Shown here: one piece after another, positions 18,856 through 42,966 of the stretch | How the letters are laid out: each line of letters opens with the position of its first letter | Numbering within the stretch: position 1 is the stretch's first letter | Source: Poseidonia sp. | GTDB lineage: Archaea > Thermoplasmatota > Poseidoniia > Poseidoniales > Poseidoniaceae | Length of the DNA stretch: 64,000 nucleotides | Reading direction: 5' to 3' | Assembly (NCBI GenBank): GCA_016779705.1 | Contig: JADHNB010000002.1 | Location: 1,017-65,016 of the forward strand | Program-made: the position numbers and the translations under genes | The notes under the pieces: generated by a model | Seen by the model: the letters and a program-made list of their open reading frames with translations, nothing else | The model's database searches: none | Told to the model about the DNA's origin: nothing

Positions 18856-20457
18856 ATGAGCGAAGTCCCCATTCTCAAGGAGACGACACGCTCAACCGGT
18901 CGCGAGGCGCTTCGCAACAACATCACGGCGGCCATGGCCTTAGCGGGCGCTGTGCGAACCACCCTCGGTCCGTTGGGCCAGGACAAGCTGCTCATCGATG
19001 ACGAGGGTCGAACCCTGGTCACCAACGACGGCGTCACGGTTCTGGAATCGGCCAAGGTTGAGCATCCGGTGGCCAAAATGCTCATCAACGCCTCCACGAC
19101 TCAAGACCGCATCGCCCGCGACGGCACCACGAGTGCCGTCCTGCTTTCGGCCGAGTTGTTGCAAAACGCCTGGGAATTGGTGCTTCAGGGCGTCCATCCA
19201 TCCGCCATTGCTCGCGGGTATCGCTTGGCAGAAGACGCTTGCAGGGCGCATTTTGACCAACTCGTTATCGACGCCACGCCCGAGCGGCAGCGGCACGCGG
19301 CCAGGACCTCACTCGCCGGAAAAATCCACGAAACCATGCAACACCACTTGGCCGAATTGGCCCTAGAAGCCGCCCAAGCGATTCAGGAAGAACGCCCCAG
19401 CGGTGTGGTCGTTGACCCGACACGGGTCAAGATCCTGACACAAACGGGCGGTTCCATGACGGACTCCCGTTTGGTGACGGGCTTGGTGTTGGCCAAAAAG
19501 CGTGTCATCGACAGCATGCCCAAGCATCTCAAATCCGGAAAAATCGCCTTGGTTGACGGCGGTCTTGAGCGCCGAGAATTGATGAGCAGCGTCAAATTGA
19601 ACGTCACCAACACCGGTGTGTTGGAACAATTCCGCCAGCAAGAGAAAGCGATGCTGCTCGAACAAGTGGACCATCTGGTCTCGTTGGGCGTGACCTTGCT
19701 GGCGTGCAAGGAAGGCATCGACGATGACCTGCACGGGGCGCTCAGCGACGCCGGCATCCAAGCCTACCGAAGGGTGGCACGTGCCGACCTCGACTTGCTG
19801 GCACGGGGGACCAACGCCACCCTGAACCACGACATCGGCGGCCTGACCAAGCGCGATCTCGGGGTGTTCATCAGCAGTCGAAACGAACGATGGAACGGCG
19901 TGATGCACTGGATCGTCGAGACCGAAGAAGGCGGTGCAACGTTCATCGCCAAAGGCTCAACCAATGAAACGGTCGGCGAAGTGGTACGGTGTTTTGCCGA
20001 CGCCTTGGGCGTTGCCTGCCAACTCCTGGAGGAACCCTCGCTGCTACCCGGCGGGGGTGCTACTCAAATTGCCCTGGCGCGGCATCTTCGGCGATTTGCC
20101 GAGGGCTTCGCCGGGCGAGAACAATTGGCCATCGAGGCCTTTGCCGATGCGTTGGAAGTCATTCCTCGCGTGCTGGCCCAGAACGCCGGATTGGACCCCC
20201 TGGATTCCCTGCTTCAAACGGTCGCCCAGCAAAGCACCGCCGAAGACGGGCAAGGCCACTTCATCGGGATGAACATCGTTGAGAAAGGACCCGCCAACAT
20301 GGTGGAGAAAGGCATTGTTGAGCCGCTTCGCATCACGCGACAAGTCCTTGCCGGAGCCACCGAAGCGGCCCTCTCGGTGCTGCGGATTGACGACGTGCTC
20401 TGGGCCAAGCAAGACCCGACCGTTCCCGACATGCCCGAGAGCGATGACGAGAGCTGA
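18856..20457 (+). CDS. ths: Thermosome / group II chaperonin subunit (divergent)
   Basis: LGPLGQDKLL, VTNDGVTVL, DGTTSAVLLSAELL and LPGGGATQIALA. I chose the start at ATG 18856 (MSEVPILKE). Confidence 0.85.
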   Translation: MSEVPILKETTRSTGREALRNNITAAMALAGAVRTTLGPLGQDKLLIDDEGRTLVTNDGVTVLESAKVEHPVAKMLINASTTQDRIARDGTTSAVLLSAELLQNAWELVLQGVHPSAIARGYRLAEDACRAHFDQLVIDATPERQRHAARTSLAGKIHETMQHHLAELALEAAQAIQEERPSGVVVDPTRVKILTQTGGSMTDSRLVTGLVLAKKRVIDSMPKHLKSGKIALVDGGLERRELMSSVKLNVTNTGVLEQFRQQEKAMLLEQVDHLVSLGVTLLACKEGIDDDLHGALSDAGIQAYRRVARADLDLLARGTNATLNHDIGGLTKRDLGVFISSRNERWNGVMHWIVETEEGGATFIAKGSTNETVGEVVRCFADALGVACQLLEEPSLLPGGGATQIALARHLRRFAEGFAGREQLAIEAFADALEVIPRVLAQNAGLDPLDSLLQTVAQQSTAEDGQGHFIGMNIVEKGPANMVEKGIVEPLRITRQVLAGATEAALSVLRIDDVLWAKQDPTVPDMPESDDES

Positions 20458-20472
20458 GGAGAGGGGACCCTC

Positions 20473-20482
20473 TGATTCAATT
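20473..20482 (+). repeat. Left copy of 10-bp direct repeat TGATTCAATT
   Basis: Exact match to 21397..21406. It sits at the left GC-content break. Confidence 0.5.
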
Positions 20483-20494
20483 CCATTTGAAAAA

Positions 20495-21310
20495 TCATTG
20501 AGCCCAATTGTCCATGCCTTTTTTCACAACTAGAGTTCGAGCGATGAGATCTTGGTTTGTTTGCTTATGGTCCGTCCATAGTTGTGCTAAATATCCGAAT
20601 CCAACGGTAAGAAGTATCAAAAAAATCAAACCATGTCGTTTGAGTGCCTGCTTCCTTGAAATTCTGTTTCCATCGTAGTCCGTAATAATCAACCCGAAGA
20701 TGCGTTTTCCTGGTGTTGCTTGCCATGATGAGGCGTTAAACAGAACAGGGTAAAATAGGCCAACCATGAGGAAAACCGCACCGAAAGAAATCCCAACGAG
20801 ACCCCCGAGTATACTTAGGATACTTATCAGCGATACATCGATCAAAAGAGCAGAGGTTCGTTGTACAAATCCTGCAAACCGTTCTCTTTCTTCACGAGAC
20901 CCCCCCACTCCCTTGTATACCATTTTATTTGGATATCCGAATTCATTGGCACCAAATTGGGTTCTTATCTTTCGTTCATGTGCTCGATTGTTTATTTCGT
21001 CCCAATCGATTTCAATACTTCCTTCTGAATATGAAACGATGCAATGTTGTACGAAACCGGAAAAATTAGGCATGGCTTTTGTGATGTCATTGAGTGTTTC
21101 GTCAATGGAAATTGTTTTCCTTTCTTTGGCCCCACTATCACCGTTACCCATCTTTGATTGATTGTTGATTTGCTCCCAATCAATTTCGATCTTTCCTTCT
21201 GAAAAATCGACGATGCAATGCTGTACGAAACCAGAAAAATTCGACATTTCTTTGGCGATATCATTTATGCTTGAATCAACAGAAATCGTCTTGTTTACCT
21301 TTTGGCTCAT
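20495..21310 (-). CDS. RDD-family membrane protein with an N-terminal tandem duplicated ~58-aa module (RHH-like)
   Basis: C-terminal half: FAGFVQRTSALLIDVSLISIL..ATPGKRIFGLIITDYDGNRIS..RTL, which is RDD-like with 3 TM helices. N-terminal half has two copies of KTIS(V/I)D..(I/L)NDI(A/T)K(E/A)M(S/P)NFSGFVQHCIV.(F/Y)SEG.IEIDW.(Q/E)INN. I chose the start at ATG 21310; the track start is 21379. Confidence 0.7.
   Translation of the reverse strand: MSQKVNKTISVDSSINDIAKEMSNFSGFVQHCIVDFSEGKIEIDWEQINNQSKMGNGDSGAKERKTISIDETLNDITKAMPNFSGFVQHCIVSYSEGSIEIDWDEINNRAHERKIRTQFGANEFGYPNKMVYKGVGGSREERERFAGFVQRTSALLIDVSLISILSILGGLVGISFGAVFLMVGLFYPVLFNASSWQATPGKRIFGLIITDYDGNRISRKQALKRHGLIFLILLTVGFGYLAQLWTDHKQTNQDLIARTLVVKKGMDNWAQ
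21001..21294 (-). repeat. Intragenic tandem duplication, period 174 bp (2 copies of ~120 bp)
   Basis: 21001..21120 and 21175..21294 align without gaps over most positions (e.g. cccaatc.atttc.at..ttccttctgaa.a....acgatgcaatg.tgtacgaaacc.gaaaaatt). Confidence 0.8.
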
Positions 21311-21396
21311 GATTTGCCATTGGGGAGTGATAATTAAGCATGGTTGCGTATGTATGGACGTAAGTATTGCAAATTTCATGTTGTCAAATCAACCGT

Positions 21397-21406
21397 TGAT
21401 TCAATT
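21397..21406 (+). repeat. Right copy of 10-bp direct repeat TGATTCAATT
   Basis: Exact match to 20473..20482. It overlaps the palindrome ATCAAC-C-GTTGAT (21388..21400). Confidence 0.5.
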
Positions 21407-21524
21407 GGTATTCTAACGAATCATAGGGTCAATGCACAAACCCACTGATTCGTTTTGTCCTCATCAGAGGGCTCGCAGTGGGCTTTGTCATAGCCTACCG
21501 TATGATGCGGACCAGAACGATCGT

Positions 21525-22583
21525 TCAGGCATCGAAATCCAGAACCACTTTCCCACAATCACCCGACATGGCCAACTGAACGGCGGACTCGAAGTCGGAA
21601 ACGGGAAGACGATGGGTCAGAACCTTGTCCACGTCGATGAGCCCTCGCTCCAACAGGTCGTGCATCGTGTCCCACGTTGACCACATCTTGCGTCCGTTGA
21701 TGCCTTTGAGGTGGAGATAGCGAAACACCACCTCGTTCATCGGCACGCTTGGCATGGATTGGCCGTAGACCGAGAGGACGTTGACGTAACCGCCCATGCG
21801 GGTGGAGTAAATCGTGTTGGCCAGGGCCGCTGCCGAGCCGGAGAACTCGCAGCTGTTGTCCACCCCGCGCCCTCCCGTGGCTTCAAGGATGGCCGCAACG
21901 ACATCGTCGCCTTTCCCGAGCACCAAATCCGCTCCAAGTTCAGCGGCCAACGCCATCCTGTACCGGTTGTCCCAATCCACGGCGATGACTTTGGTCGCGC
22001 CCATGGCCTTCGCCGCGTTGACGGCGAACAGCCCGATGGGCCCCAACCCGTGAACGGCCACGGTGGCGCCCTCCACGGGTCCACCCGTCAAGGTGTGAAT
22101 GGCGTTGCCAAGCGGGTCTTGAATCGAAGCGTGTCCGGGGTCCAATCCTTCGGGGACGTGACGCGCGTTGACGGCGGGAACGACGAAGTAGGGGGCGAAG
22201 GCGCCGTGACCGTGCACTCCGAAGATGGAGCCGTTCTCGCAGATGTGAGCGTTCCCTTCGTCGCAGCGGGGGCAGGCCCAGCACGCAAGGTGACACTCAA
22301 CGGCGATGTGGTCACCGATTTGGTGAGATTCAACGCCCTCGCCAAGGCCAACGACGAGCCCGCTGGTTTCGTGACCCGTGATGGTGCCCAAGGGAACGTT
22401 GTCACGGCTCCACTCGTCCCATTTCCAGATGTGGATGTCCGTACCGCAAATGGACGTGGATTGGGCTTTCACCAACACTTCGCCCGGCCCGGGGGAAGGA
22501 ACAGGATGTTCTTCAAGGGAGAAACCCCCTTCCTCGTCCCGAGTTTTGGTCCATGCAGCCATGGTTGCTGGAACGGATTGCAT
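21525..22583 (-). CDS. tdh: L-threonine 3-dehydrogenase (Zn-dependent MDR family)
   Basis: ICGTDIHIWKWDEW, GHETSG, structural Zn site CWACPRCDEGNAHIC, and GLGPIG. Confidence 0.8.
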   Translation of the reverse strand: MQSVPATMAAWTKTRDEEGGFSLEEHPVPSPGPGEVLVKAQSTSICGTDIHIWKWDEWSRDNVPLGTITGHETSGLVVGLGEGVESHQIGDHIAVECHLACWACPRCDEGNAHICENGSIFGVHGHGAFAPYFVVPAVNARHVPEGLDPGHASIQDPLGNAIHTLTGGPVEGATVAVHGLGPIGLFAVNAAKAMGATKVIAVDWDNRYRMALAAELGADLVLGKGDDVVAAILEATGGRGVDNSCEFSGSAAALANTIYSTRMGGYVNVLSVYGQSMPSVPMNEVVFRYLHLKGINGRKMWSTWDTMHDLLERGLIDVDKVLTHRLPVSDFESAVQLAMSGDCGKVVLDFDA

Positions 22584-41703: not shown

Positions 41704-42966
41704 TCAGTACCCCCTCACCTGCATCAAGGCCTGAGACAAATCCATGTCCGGCATCCAATCAATGACCTGGGCTCCTGAACCTGCCAAGGTGGTGAGCCGG
41801 TTCTGTCGTTCCAACTTGAGCACTTCATAGGACATGCGTGGAATCCGGCTCACCAAGCGCTCGAAGTCAACGCTTGAGGGCGAGAGCACGGTGACTTCGT
41901 GACCTCGCCCGACGAGGTCACGCACAGCGGCCGGCACGGTCCCGTCGCCTTCGCATGAAGAAATGATGAACACCGGGCTGCCTCGACTAAAGCGGCCGCT
42001 CAAAGAGTTGGTAACCGCTTGAAGCGGCATGGCCCCTTTCGGCGTGACGCCCGCAAGGGCACTGAGGATCTTGAAGTACTGCTTGTCTCCCGTATCGGGG
42101 GGCAAATAAGCCAATTTCTCGTCGTAAATGGCCAACGCCACGGAATCACGCCGCTTCAGGAAGAAGGCCGCCAGACTGGCAGCGGAAACGGTGCCCATCT
42201 CGAGGGGATTTTTCAGCACCGTGCCGATGCGAGCGAGGTCTCGGCTGTCCAAAATGAGGTACAAGTCCGTGACCGCATCACGGCATTTCTCGTTCACCAT
42301 CAATTCACCGGTTCGTGCGAAGGCCTTCCAGTTGATGTTCTTGAACGGGTCACCGGGTACATACTCCCGCAGGGAGTAAAATTCGGAACCTTGCCCTGGC
42401 GTGCGCAACGTGGTGGCACCGGTGTACATTTTGGGAGTCCGGCTTCGCAAGAACGCTTCTTCGATGTCTTTGATTTGCGGGAAAATGACGATGTCGCTGT
42501 GATGATCGACGTACATCTCTTCGACGCCCAGATTGAAGGTGTTTCGAGCTCGCAAGGAGACCGGCCCGATGGAATAGTGGCCCCGCAACGGGCAACGCAG
42601 CACGTATCGAATGCGGGCGCTTTCACCCGGCTTGAGGTTCAATTGCATTTGGTTGAGCCCGCTTCGCAATTTCATTTCGTGGGGAATGTTGTCGTAGATG
42701 TCAAGCATCTGGGTTTTGCGATTGCTCCGGTTCGTTACCAAGAGTTCAACATAGAGGTCGTCCCCTTTGTACAGGTTGTCCGCCGAAAGCGTGCGCTGAA
42801 CTTCGACATCACCGTGACCTGAAATCCATGAATTGACCACGATGAAGGCGACGAGGGTCAAGCCTAGAATCATCATTTGTTGATTGGAAATCATCATTCC
42901 AATGAGCACCAAGGCGATGCCGCCGGTGAAGGTGAAGGCTGCTTTCCGTGTCCACATTGGCCTCAC
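41704..42966 (-). CDS. DUF58 domain protein (vWA-like, normally a MoxR partner)
   Basis: Two N-terminal TM helices, an Ig-like segment, then the hallmark GSEFYSLREYVPGDPFKNINWKAFARTGELMVNE. Confidence 0.75.
   Translation of the reverse strand: MRPMWTRKAAFTFTGGIALVLIGMMISNQQMMILGLTLVAFIVVNSWISGHGDVEVQRTLSADNLYKGDDLYVELLVTNRSNRKTQMLDIYDNIPHEMKLRSGLNQMQLNLKPGESARIRYVLRCPLRGHYSIGPVSLRARNTFNLGVEEMYVDHHSDIVIFPQIKDIEEAFLRSRTPKMYTGATTLRTPGQGSEFYSLREYVPGDPFKNINWKAFARTGELMVNEKCRDAVTDLYLILDSRDLARIGTVLKNPLEMGTVSAASLAAFFLKRRDSVALAIYDEKLAYLPPDTGDKQYFKILSALAGVTPKGAMPLQAVTNSLSGRFSRGSPVFIISSCEGDGTVPAAVRDLVGRGHEVTVLSPSSVDFERLVSRIPRMSYEVLKLERQNRLTTLAGSGAQVIDWMPDMDLSQALMQVRGY

Follow-up and report, generated by a model that had tools for sequence, protein, structure and literature searches.

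The 64,000-nt stretch of a Poseidonia sp. genome analysed here (positions 1,017–65,016 of contig JADHNB010000002.1, assembly GCA_016779705.1; hereafter the window) carries, between the thermosome gene (ths) and tdh, a low-GC block with a single gene, which encodes a protein with an RDD membrane domain. The block runs on the minus strand at 20458–21497, from the thermosome stop codon to a TA dinucleotide beside tdh, as delimited by the GC profile, comparison with the closest genome and homology. We put at roughly 80% the probability that it is a mobile gene cassette of a family specific to the Poseidoniales, non-autonomous because it encodes no recombinase. All evidence is computational; the boundaries, the TA, the distribution and mobility of the family and its co-location with a recombinase are observed directly in assembled genomes and contigs.

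The low-GC block and its gene

The assembly scanned, referred to here as G000, comprises 1,513,636 bp and is a metagenome-assembled genome (MAG) that is only 68% complete. Over 14,239 sliding 900-bp windows its GC content averages 0.582 (standard deviation 0.027), and the genome-wide minimum falls on this block, at 0.402 or about 6.6 standard deviations under the mean. The lowest-GC kilobase of G000 spans 20478–21495 (0.40 versus 0.58), and only four islets lie under 0.47 in the sliding windows. An earlier note on this DNA had described a sharp drop in GC between the two flanking genes, a single gene within it and no integrase or transposase; the drop is the minimum of the genome, and the only gene, at 20495–21310 on the minus strand, is that of the RDD protein, with no recombinase beside it. 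Its GC at third codon positions is 0.38 against 0.73–0.75 in dnaK, ths and tdh, and the GC of the cargo is 0.41 in the window copy. The note's proposal of horizontal acquisition is upheld by the absence of the gene from all 24 same-genus genomes searched and by a gene GC that holds at about 0.39 while the GC of the host flanks spans 0.39–0.60. Compared with G001, the closest genome, G000 has sequence of its own at 20478–21480.

The cargo protein (271 aa) is composed of two tandem ribbon-helix-helix (RHH)-like repeats followed by the RDD membrane domain. Its true start is the ATG at 21310 and not 21379, because the homologs all begin MSxKVNK. The RDD domain (PF06271), encoded at 20540–20875 on the minus strand (residues 169–280 of the 294-aa open reading frame (ORF)), matches with 57.9 bits against a cut-off of 24.1, over profile positions 2–136 of 137. 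By homolog alignment, the N-terminal half is a tandem unit of about 45 residues, KTISIDxxLNxITKxMPNFSGFVQHCIV..G..EIDW, encoded on the minus strand by repeat 1 (21160–21265) and repeat 2 (20986–21091), which are 78–80% identical as DNA; repeat 2 is the only copy in single-repeat homologs (207–218 aa). The unit has no match among Pfam models. AlphaFold2 predicts the secondary structure E-H-H(-H) for each unit, twice, with a pLDDT of about 70 in a model that is otherwise poor (mean 52). A Foldseek search against the Protein Data Bank (PDB) gave nothing significant (best E 0.35 and above); several of the weak top matches (F relaxosome chain 9f0z_E, 2efv and AcaB) are proteins that we take to be of RHH type. 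We therefore call the repeats RHH-like (β-α-α), and the best guess for the cargo is a membrane-tethered DNA-binding protein. Its C-terminal domain places it with the RDD family of YckC-type proteins, from which the tandem repeats, lying outside the Pfam family, set it apart.

A TATA-like box, CTTAATTAT on the coding strand (21330–21338, minus strand), lies 19 nt before the ATG, and TTAATTAT is found at the same distance from the ATG in all homologs, cassette-borne and chromosomal, which suggests that the cassette has its own promoter and a leaderless transcript. Cargo homologs are confined to the Poseidoniales. One-repeat homologs (207–218 aa) have host-like GC in some genomes, where they stand upstream of a dnaK–thermosome operon without a module of the kind described below; the two-repeat form is cassette-borne.

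Cassette boundaries

The two-repeat gene occurs at about 84% nucleotide identity in 18 loci of other Poseidoniaceae, where homology to the window cassette spans 21372–20463/8. Gene GC is 0.385–0.39 in all 18 loci, flank GC 0.39–0.53. Similarity among these copies extends from about 190 nt upstream of the ATG to about 80 nt past the stop and ends to the base, at ..[GC]GG-TA-GCGTTAGC.. on the 5′ side (also written ..GG-TA-GCG..) and at ..GCAAA[GC]GG-TA on the other; beyond both TA ends the flanks are unrelated. Homology between copies of one cassette starts or stops exactly at this TA. In the window the junction TA, the putative crossover dinucleotide, lies at 21496–21497, 28 nt past the tdh stop (..CGG-TA-GGC.. 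on the minus strand); in 16 diverse copies the T is invariant and the A kept in at least 90%. Contig L029 has two cassettes set off by three modules in direct order, and the tail of the RDD cassette leads directly into the next module, ..GCAAACGG-TA-GCGTCTGAC...

The TA at both ends of complete cassettes, together with the imperfect inverted copies of ACCCAyCT that both ends have some 12 nt inwards, would also be expected of a TA-duplicating non-autonomous transposon with a passenger gene, resembling a miniature inverted-repeat transposable element of the IS630/Tc1-mariner type. This is very unlikely: the target is an extended palindrome and not a bare TA (see below), a search for DDE_3 (PF13358, IS630-type) transposases found none in 41 genomes, with positive controls, and the autonomous copies encode a serine recombinase and not a DDE enzyme.

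The downstream end of the cassette, which we read as a truncated tail (20458–20494, minus strand), aligns with P0004-type tails to 20463/8 and contains the hairpin AGAGGGGACCCTCT. Same-species contigs from other samples (L031, L033 and L045) carry the cassette at 96–99.5% identity. In a further contig, L032 (ena:ERZ27275788:k141_26303), the backbone is >99.5% identical, the cassette interior (20630–21420) is about 12% divergent and encodes an RDD allele of 85% protein identity, and both cassette ends are nearly identical; the divergent allele may have arisen through gene conversion by another cassette copy. L032 bears another cassette on the tdh side, its tail preceding the module.

A conserved module at the upstream end

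At the 5′ end of the cassette, the first ~85–100 nt after the upstream TA form a conserved, structured module. A covariance model, R1, was built from 16 diverse copies including that of the window; independent copies score 40–103 bits. The window copy scores 89 bits (E 4e-21) over about 98 nt (21414–21511, minus strand), of which the first 14 nt (21498–21511) are host flank. An 8-bp inverted repeat within the module is paired in 82.8% of cells, with three pairs showing compensatory change; as the helices overlap, no single fold is claimed. The 42-nt core hairpin region CCCACTGATTCGTTTTGTCCTCATCAGAGGGCTCGCAGTGGG (21441–21482) holds three CCC[AT]CTG / CAG[AT]GGG copies, and the 42-mer pattern occurs four times in G000. 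Rfam yields no match for the module, and across 20300–21700 only two sub-threshold IMES-4 matches (26 and 20 bits, gathering threshold 48), both inside the coding repeats and taken as chance. A hammerhead ribozyme built on CTGATGAG..GAA in the module was rejected, there being no stem II and the string being absent from other module types.

Four module copies are present in G000, on C72 (the window), C62, C65 and C29, each after a high-GC gene and before low-GC DNA. More widely, 36 of 41 related genomes have R1 matches, with 1–17 copies each. Among genomes sampled across the phylum, 17 of 18 Poseidoniales contain the module, as does one further member of the class; about 100 genomes from outside the class contain none. 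Maps of 14 regions follow one plan: a housekeeping gene, the module, 0.6–3 kb of low-GC cargo, then often a facing module and a housekeeping gene. Modules point both ways, often as convergent pairs, and many copies lie at contig ends. Among ten cargo proteins scanned, five matched one Pfam family each, namely AIPR (abortive infection), a GIY-YIG nuclease, DUF2130, DUF1801 and an eCIS-core-like domain, and five had no match.

On C62 of G000 (19227–20717) the module is followed by an 87-aa gene with two transmembrane (TM) segments, a cluster of CCCTCTGAT/ATCAGAGGG, a gene with an HNH motif and the end of a serine recombinase gene; a near-duplicate of this module and of the islet start lies at another contig end (C29:6259). 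Two further islets of GC 0.45–0.47 in G000 (C15:4101–5100 and C30:201–1500) hold orphan ORFs of 342 and 443 aa and have no R1 module.

This distribution bears on a second alternative, in which the modules are hairpins or terminators after genes, similar to repetitive extragenic palindromes (REP) and their mosaic arrays (BIME), and the foreign DNA is swapped by homologous recombination with no dedicated recombinase. The modules do resemble REP/BIME palindromes in being hairpin-capable, in lying always just after gene ends and in occurring in several copies per genome; most module-bearing genomes have no recombinase other than XerA, and the allele swap inside the L032 cassette, between near-identical ends, resembles gene conversion. 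The Poseidoniales repeats are distinct in that each accompanies foreign low-GC cargo and abuts a TA junction exact to the base. Cassette copies end at the same TA between unrelated flanks, with no outside shared arm for recombination, the empty site is short and palindromic about TA, and a serine recombinase is packaged in the same unit type wherever upstream DNA suffices. We therefore consider the REP-like explanation improbable.

Short repeats at the ends of the block

The earlier note had drawn attention to a 10-bp direct repeat, TGATTCAATT at 20473–20482 and 21397–21406, and to a 9-bp inverted pair, CCCTCTGAT at 20468–20476 and ATCAGAGGG at 21463–21471, all of which are exact in position and letters. 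A 10-mer common to both end zones occurs in 1.35% of 2,000 dinucleotide shuffles (the rough estimate of the note was well below 1%); any repeated 10-mer within the block occurs in 60% of shuffles. G000 has seven copies of TGATTCAATT, in unrelated contexts.

The exactness of TGATTCAATT near both ends and the rarity of such a zone-to-zone match are what favour the note's proposal that transposition or integration duplicated a 10-bp target or used TGATTCAATT as an att core. The evidence from related sequences leaves this hardly tenable. The junction, family-wide, is the TA at 21496–21497, and the right copy lies about 90 nt inside it. Among sister-strain contigs, L031 and L032 have AGATTCAATT in place of the left 10-mer, and L032 also has an altered right one; the cassettes that other genomes carry at ~84% identity have neither. 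Where an empty site with a single TGATTCAATT was looked for, in the closest relative G001, the sequence is TCTGATT followed by a different 20 nt. The module on C65 has ATTGAATCAA at the place corresponding to the right copy, without the RDD gene.

Module and tail are built from CCC[AT]CTG(ATT) and its complement in alternating orientation, with copies in the window at 20468 (CCCTCTG), 21441 (CCCACTG), 21465 (CAGAGGG) and 21476 (CAGTGGG), and the repeats of the earlier note are best read as copies of this building-block motif, CCC[AT]CTGATT. The 9-bp inverted pair is real, as two among several copies; ATCAGAGGG pairs locally too, with CCCACTGAT at 21441–21449. The left TGATTCAATT consists of TGATT of the tail motif and five cassette bases, and the right one lies within a 23-nt stretch that is peculiar to the module subtype of the window and missing from P0004-type cassettes. 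As the 10-mers are unconserved in sister strains and lie off the junctions, their exact match is partly motif-driven and partly luck. Overlapping the second TGATTCAATT is the palindrome AATCAACCGTTGATT (21387–21401; the two together span 21387–21406), at a gap in the alignment with P0004-type cassettes; its candidacy as a conserved upstream operator was dropped, since it is not conserved in L032 and is absent from related cassettes.

The thermosome–tdh site in other genomes

The gap between ths and tdh measures 8–23 bp in the four congeners with the most divergent thermosome and tdh, about 1.63 kb, with an HMG-CoA synthase gene, in most congeners, and about 92 bp in G001 (98% protein identity for both flanking genes). 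Other low-GC cargo occupies the site in G015 and G024:C20. After tdh, these two genomes share the host flank ..GGGCAAACCG-TA and then carry two different modules and cassettes; at the same place G017 has the palindrome GCAGACCG-TA-CGGTCTG, which by comparison reads as the empty site. In G015 (L013, that is G015:C63:1–3600, and L014) the insert at ths–tdh is a multi-gene low-GC island with modules at its edges; its genes are, by eye, methyltransferase-like, glycosyltransferase-like and 178-aa. Larger inserts can therefore occupy this site as well.

The HMG-CoA synthase gene stands between ths and tdh in most Poseidonia (L004, L005, L008–L012 and L017). It is split into two overlapping frames in G008, by a frameshift or an assembly error, and is missing from the interval in G000 and G001; tblastn found no match elsewhere in G000, as far as a 68%-complete MAG can tell.

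Target site and proposed mode of transfer

Movement of whole units is observed for another cargo. A complete small cassette on C65 of G000 (41939–42480), comprising the module and a 71-aa gene with two TM segments, lies between thiolase and ArsC-like genes and is 95% identical over 511 nt to a copy in G020 that follows an enolase gene (identified by eye). The similarity starts at GGG-TA-GG and ends in the tail at ..ATCAGACCG-TA-CGG.

The host side of such junctions reads yCAnnnGG-TA and TA-CCnnnTGr, and so the target appears to be a palindrome centred on TA. At the junctions only the TA never varies, and sites that are empty or joined form palindromes about it. A tyrosine recombinase requires an overlap of 6–8 bp; with TA as the sole constant, the junctions would fit a 2-bp crossover better.

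In the scheme that we propose, each cassette has three parts: a ~100-nt module, a cargo gene that brings its own promoter, and a short tail normally ending ..GG-TA. Excision would yield a circle that joins tail to module across the TA and so creates a single dyad-like recombination site. Site-specific recombination would then insert the cassette either into a host palindrome that lies just past a gene (yCAnnnGG-TA-CCnnnTGr), at its central TA, or at the TA of a resident cassette; the docking-target sequences considered are CAAAGGGTACCCTTTG and CAGACCGTACGGTCTG. As TA is self-complementary, either orientation would be possible, giving head-to-head pairs and small arrays. The window cassette would have been drawn from a pool common to the Poseidoniales, which would account for a GC of 0.39–0.41 inside a genome of 0.58. 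The circular intermediate, the 2-bp crossover, the acting enzyme and the role of the cargo are the parts of this scheme that we infer.

Solo docking palindromes were counted in G000 (AGGGTACCCT 0 and GGGTACCC 2, against about 40 expected), and the count is uninformative because other GC-rich palindromes are equally depleted: GGGATCCC and CCCTAGGG also occur twice each where about 40 are expected, and CCTAGG 14 times against 474. The depletion of short GC-rich palindromes suggests restriction avoidance.

A candidate recombinase

A small serine recombinase of about 262 aa is the candidate for moving the cassette family, acting in trans on the RDD cassette, a proposal that we hold to be somewhat likelier true than false. 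That it acts on these sites is what its co-location with them suggests. G000 contains a single fragment of such an enzyme (the C-terminal 146 aa), cut by the end of contig C62 and lying 1 kb from the module in the same low-GC islet; a 263-aa relative in G009 (C43) lies in an islet that ends with a module. The family is very common in metagenomes, where 737 clusters match at E below 1e-20, most of them on contigs that are short, and a co-oriented module is present 0.3–3.8 kb upstream of the recombinase in every context with enough upstream DNA.

Six contigs share, at 100% identity, one recombinase cassette of about 2.95 kb, made up of the module, three small genes and the recombinase. Its end reads ..GAACACGAGGG-TA-CCC, after which five different sequences follow, and upstream it has two different flanks that split at TA. 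We take this unit to be an autonomous member of the family and the RDD cassette a non-autonomous one. The serine recombinase is carried by cassettes of L069–L079, G009:C43 and G000:C62, and not by that of the window.

Positions 1–144 of PF00239 map to the N terminus of the 263-aa ORF, and since PF00239 fills the N-terminal ~150 residues, PF07508, the second domain of homologs, presumably lies C-terminal to it. The domain order of IS607 (N-terminal helix-turn-helix, C-terminal catalytic domain) is not that of the 263-aa recombinase. Tyrosine recombinases (PF00589) are represented in 39 of 41 genomes by a XerA-like gene, one in each and never beside an array; exceptions are few. At one locus of G010 (L068, G010:C40, 4721–6126) a 417-aa tyrosine integrase gene follows purA, with a module immediately after it; by eye, the integrase gene overlaps a tRNA-like stretch. 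On metagenome contigs L070–L076 a single low-GC region houses two resolvase genes, that of 261 aa and, about 5 kb upstream, a second of 269 aa; some islets therefore have two small serine recombinases.

Several observations weigh against the cassette interpretation. The first is that G001 does not offer a clean empty site: its ths–tdh interval reads tga-GCAGAGGGGACCTCTGATTAGAGGGAGCATCAAACCC-TA-GGCTATGACAAAGCC-TA-CCGTATG, here a tail-like stretch and a TA precede the initial 15 nt of the module, oriented opposite to that of the window, and a second TA follows. It shares with the window tail only ..AGAGGGGACC(C)TCTGATT, and on this comparison neither state would derive from the other by a single event. 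The 15 nt in question, GGCTTTGTCATAGCC on the plus strand, lie at 21481–21495 of the window, and have a TA on each side in G001. The inverted GGCTATGACAAAGCC is at 680–694 of L003 (G001:C55); the inversion could be a hairpin-loop flip or a tiny inversion made by a recombinase. Likewise, the window tail stops at AATCAGAGGGTCCCCTCTCC against the ths stop, with no canonical ..GCAnnnGG-TA and no TA, and because it is truncated there, the window copy may no longer be able to move.

The remaining points concern the machinery. A PF00239 recombinase is present in only 3 of the 41 related genomes, against modules in 36, and the link to the enzyme therefore depends on the metagenome contigs and on mobilisation in trans. 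The integrase beside the G010 module is a tyrosine enzyme, in a locus that may be an integrated element itself carrying a cassette. Pairing within the module has several mutually exclusive alternatives and modest covariation, two of its three helices being counted, so that a role as a protein-binding or folded site is putative. Finally, the excised circle and the products of recombination are deduced from assembled sequence.

Relation to known mobile systems

The earlier note had offered a non-autonomous element or an integron-like cassette among its readings; a non-autonomous, integron-like cassette stands in that general sense, the unit having no recombinase of its own. Integron cassettes (attC/IntI, in chromosomal arrays and CALIN/SALIN), reportedly present in archaeal MAGs, are similar in combining one gene with one structured site per unit, in varied and often defence-like or unknown cargo, in small arrays at fixed spots, in many recombinase-less copies and in a pool common to different hosts. 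A strict integron cassette, moved by the tyrosine recombinase IntI at attC, is nonetheless a reading to which we give almost no weight. Such a cassette has a site of R″/L″–L′/R′ architecture with crossover in the R′ core G-TTRRRY, and is co-oriented with its neighbours behind attI/Pc, in most cases without a promoter. The sequence at either cassette boundary, read without an attC model, contains no GTTRRRY, and all junctions are ..GG-TA-G/C.. and not G-TTRRRY; the junction is a palindrome around TA with no attC G-TT core. Cassettes occur in both orientations, each with its own promoter, and the site is mostly upstream of the cargo. The hosts are archaea with one XerA-type tyrosine recombinase per genome and no IntI, and the candidate enzyme is a serine recombinase. 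As far as their sequences tell, the Poseidoniales cassettes display none of the defining integron features tested.

Elements moved by serine recombinases (phiC31, Bxb1, CcrAB of SCCmec and IS607) are similar in encoding the enzyme themselves and in the proposed crossover at a 2-bp core flanked by imperfect dyad arms, without a long duplication. The large serine integrases are far bigger than the ~262-aa Poseidoniales enzyme, which has a Resolvase domain and a short PF07508 part, and IS607 differs in that the catalytic domain of the Poseidoniales enzyme is N-terminal. The central dinucleotide of the Poseidoniales sites is self-complementary and hence confers no polarity, the sites are long and multi-motif, and most units are non-autonomous single-gene cassettes. 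The pdif modules and IMEX, which use the host Xer system, likewise consist of gene modules that lack a recombinase, have recombination sites on either side and pass between replicons; the Poseidoniales junction differs in having no dif-like 11-6-11 site and only 2 bp invariant, and the family has a dedicated serine recombinase that travels in the same unit type.

Our literature search found no description of such cassettes, the nearest being a preprint on Charybdis elements (Kirchberger and Luque, bioRxiv 10.1101/2025.08.03.668216), circles of about 4.6 kb with about 10 conserved genes that integrate beside tRNA genes via an integrase. These are likewise small mobile elements with integrated forms in Poseidoniales genomes, but are not single-gene cassettes with a 100-nt module.

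Implications for the Poseidoniales

The Marine Group II archaea (Poseidoniales) are uncultured, globally abundant and among the commonest archaea of the surface ocean, and little is known of how they exchange genes. Taken together, the observations incline us, by a narrow measure, to the proposal that they run a gene-cassette economy of their own, a functional analogue of the integron assembled from different parts. These parts would jointly be a ~262-aa serine recombinase, multi-motif sites of ~100–150 bp that cross over at a self-complementary TA, palindromes downstream of housekeeping genes where cassettes dock, and single-gene cassettes that bring their own promoters. Such cassettes, with membrane proteins, Abi/AIPR, nucleases and numerous orphans as cargo, would be shared throughout the order whatever the GC of the host.

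If this is correct, the cassette system would explain the small low-GC islets and many of the contig breaks in MAGs of these archaea, and would open a way into the flexible part of their genomes, AIPR and other defence genes included. Model R1 allows cassette boundaries in Poseidoniales genomes to be marked automatically, and a recombinase of ~262 aa, with its defined site of ~100 bp and its palindromic target, could be useful as a genetic tool. The system would also constitute an archaeal, serine-recombinase counterpart to the integron, in which case cassette platforms would have evolved more than once.

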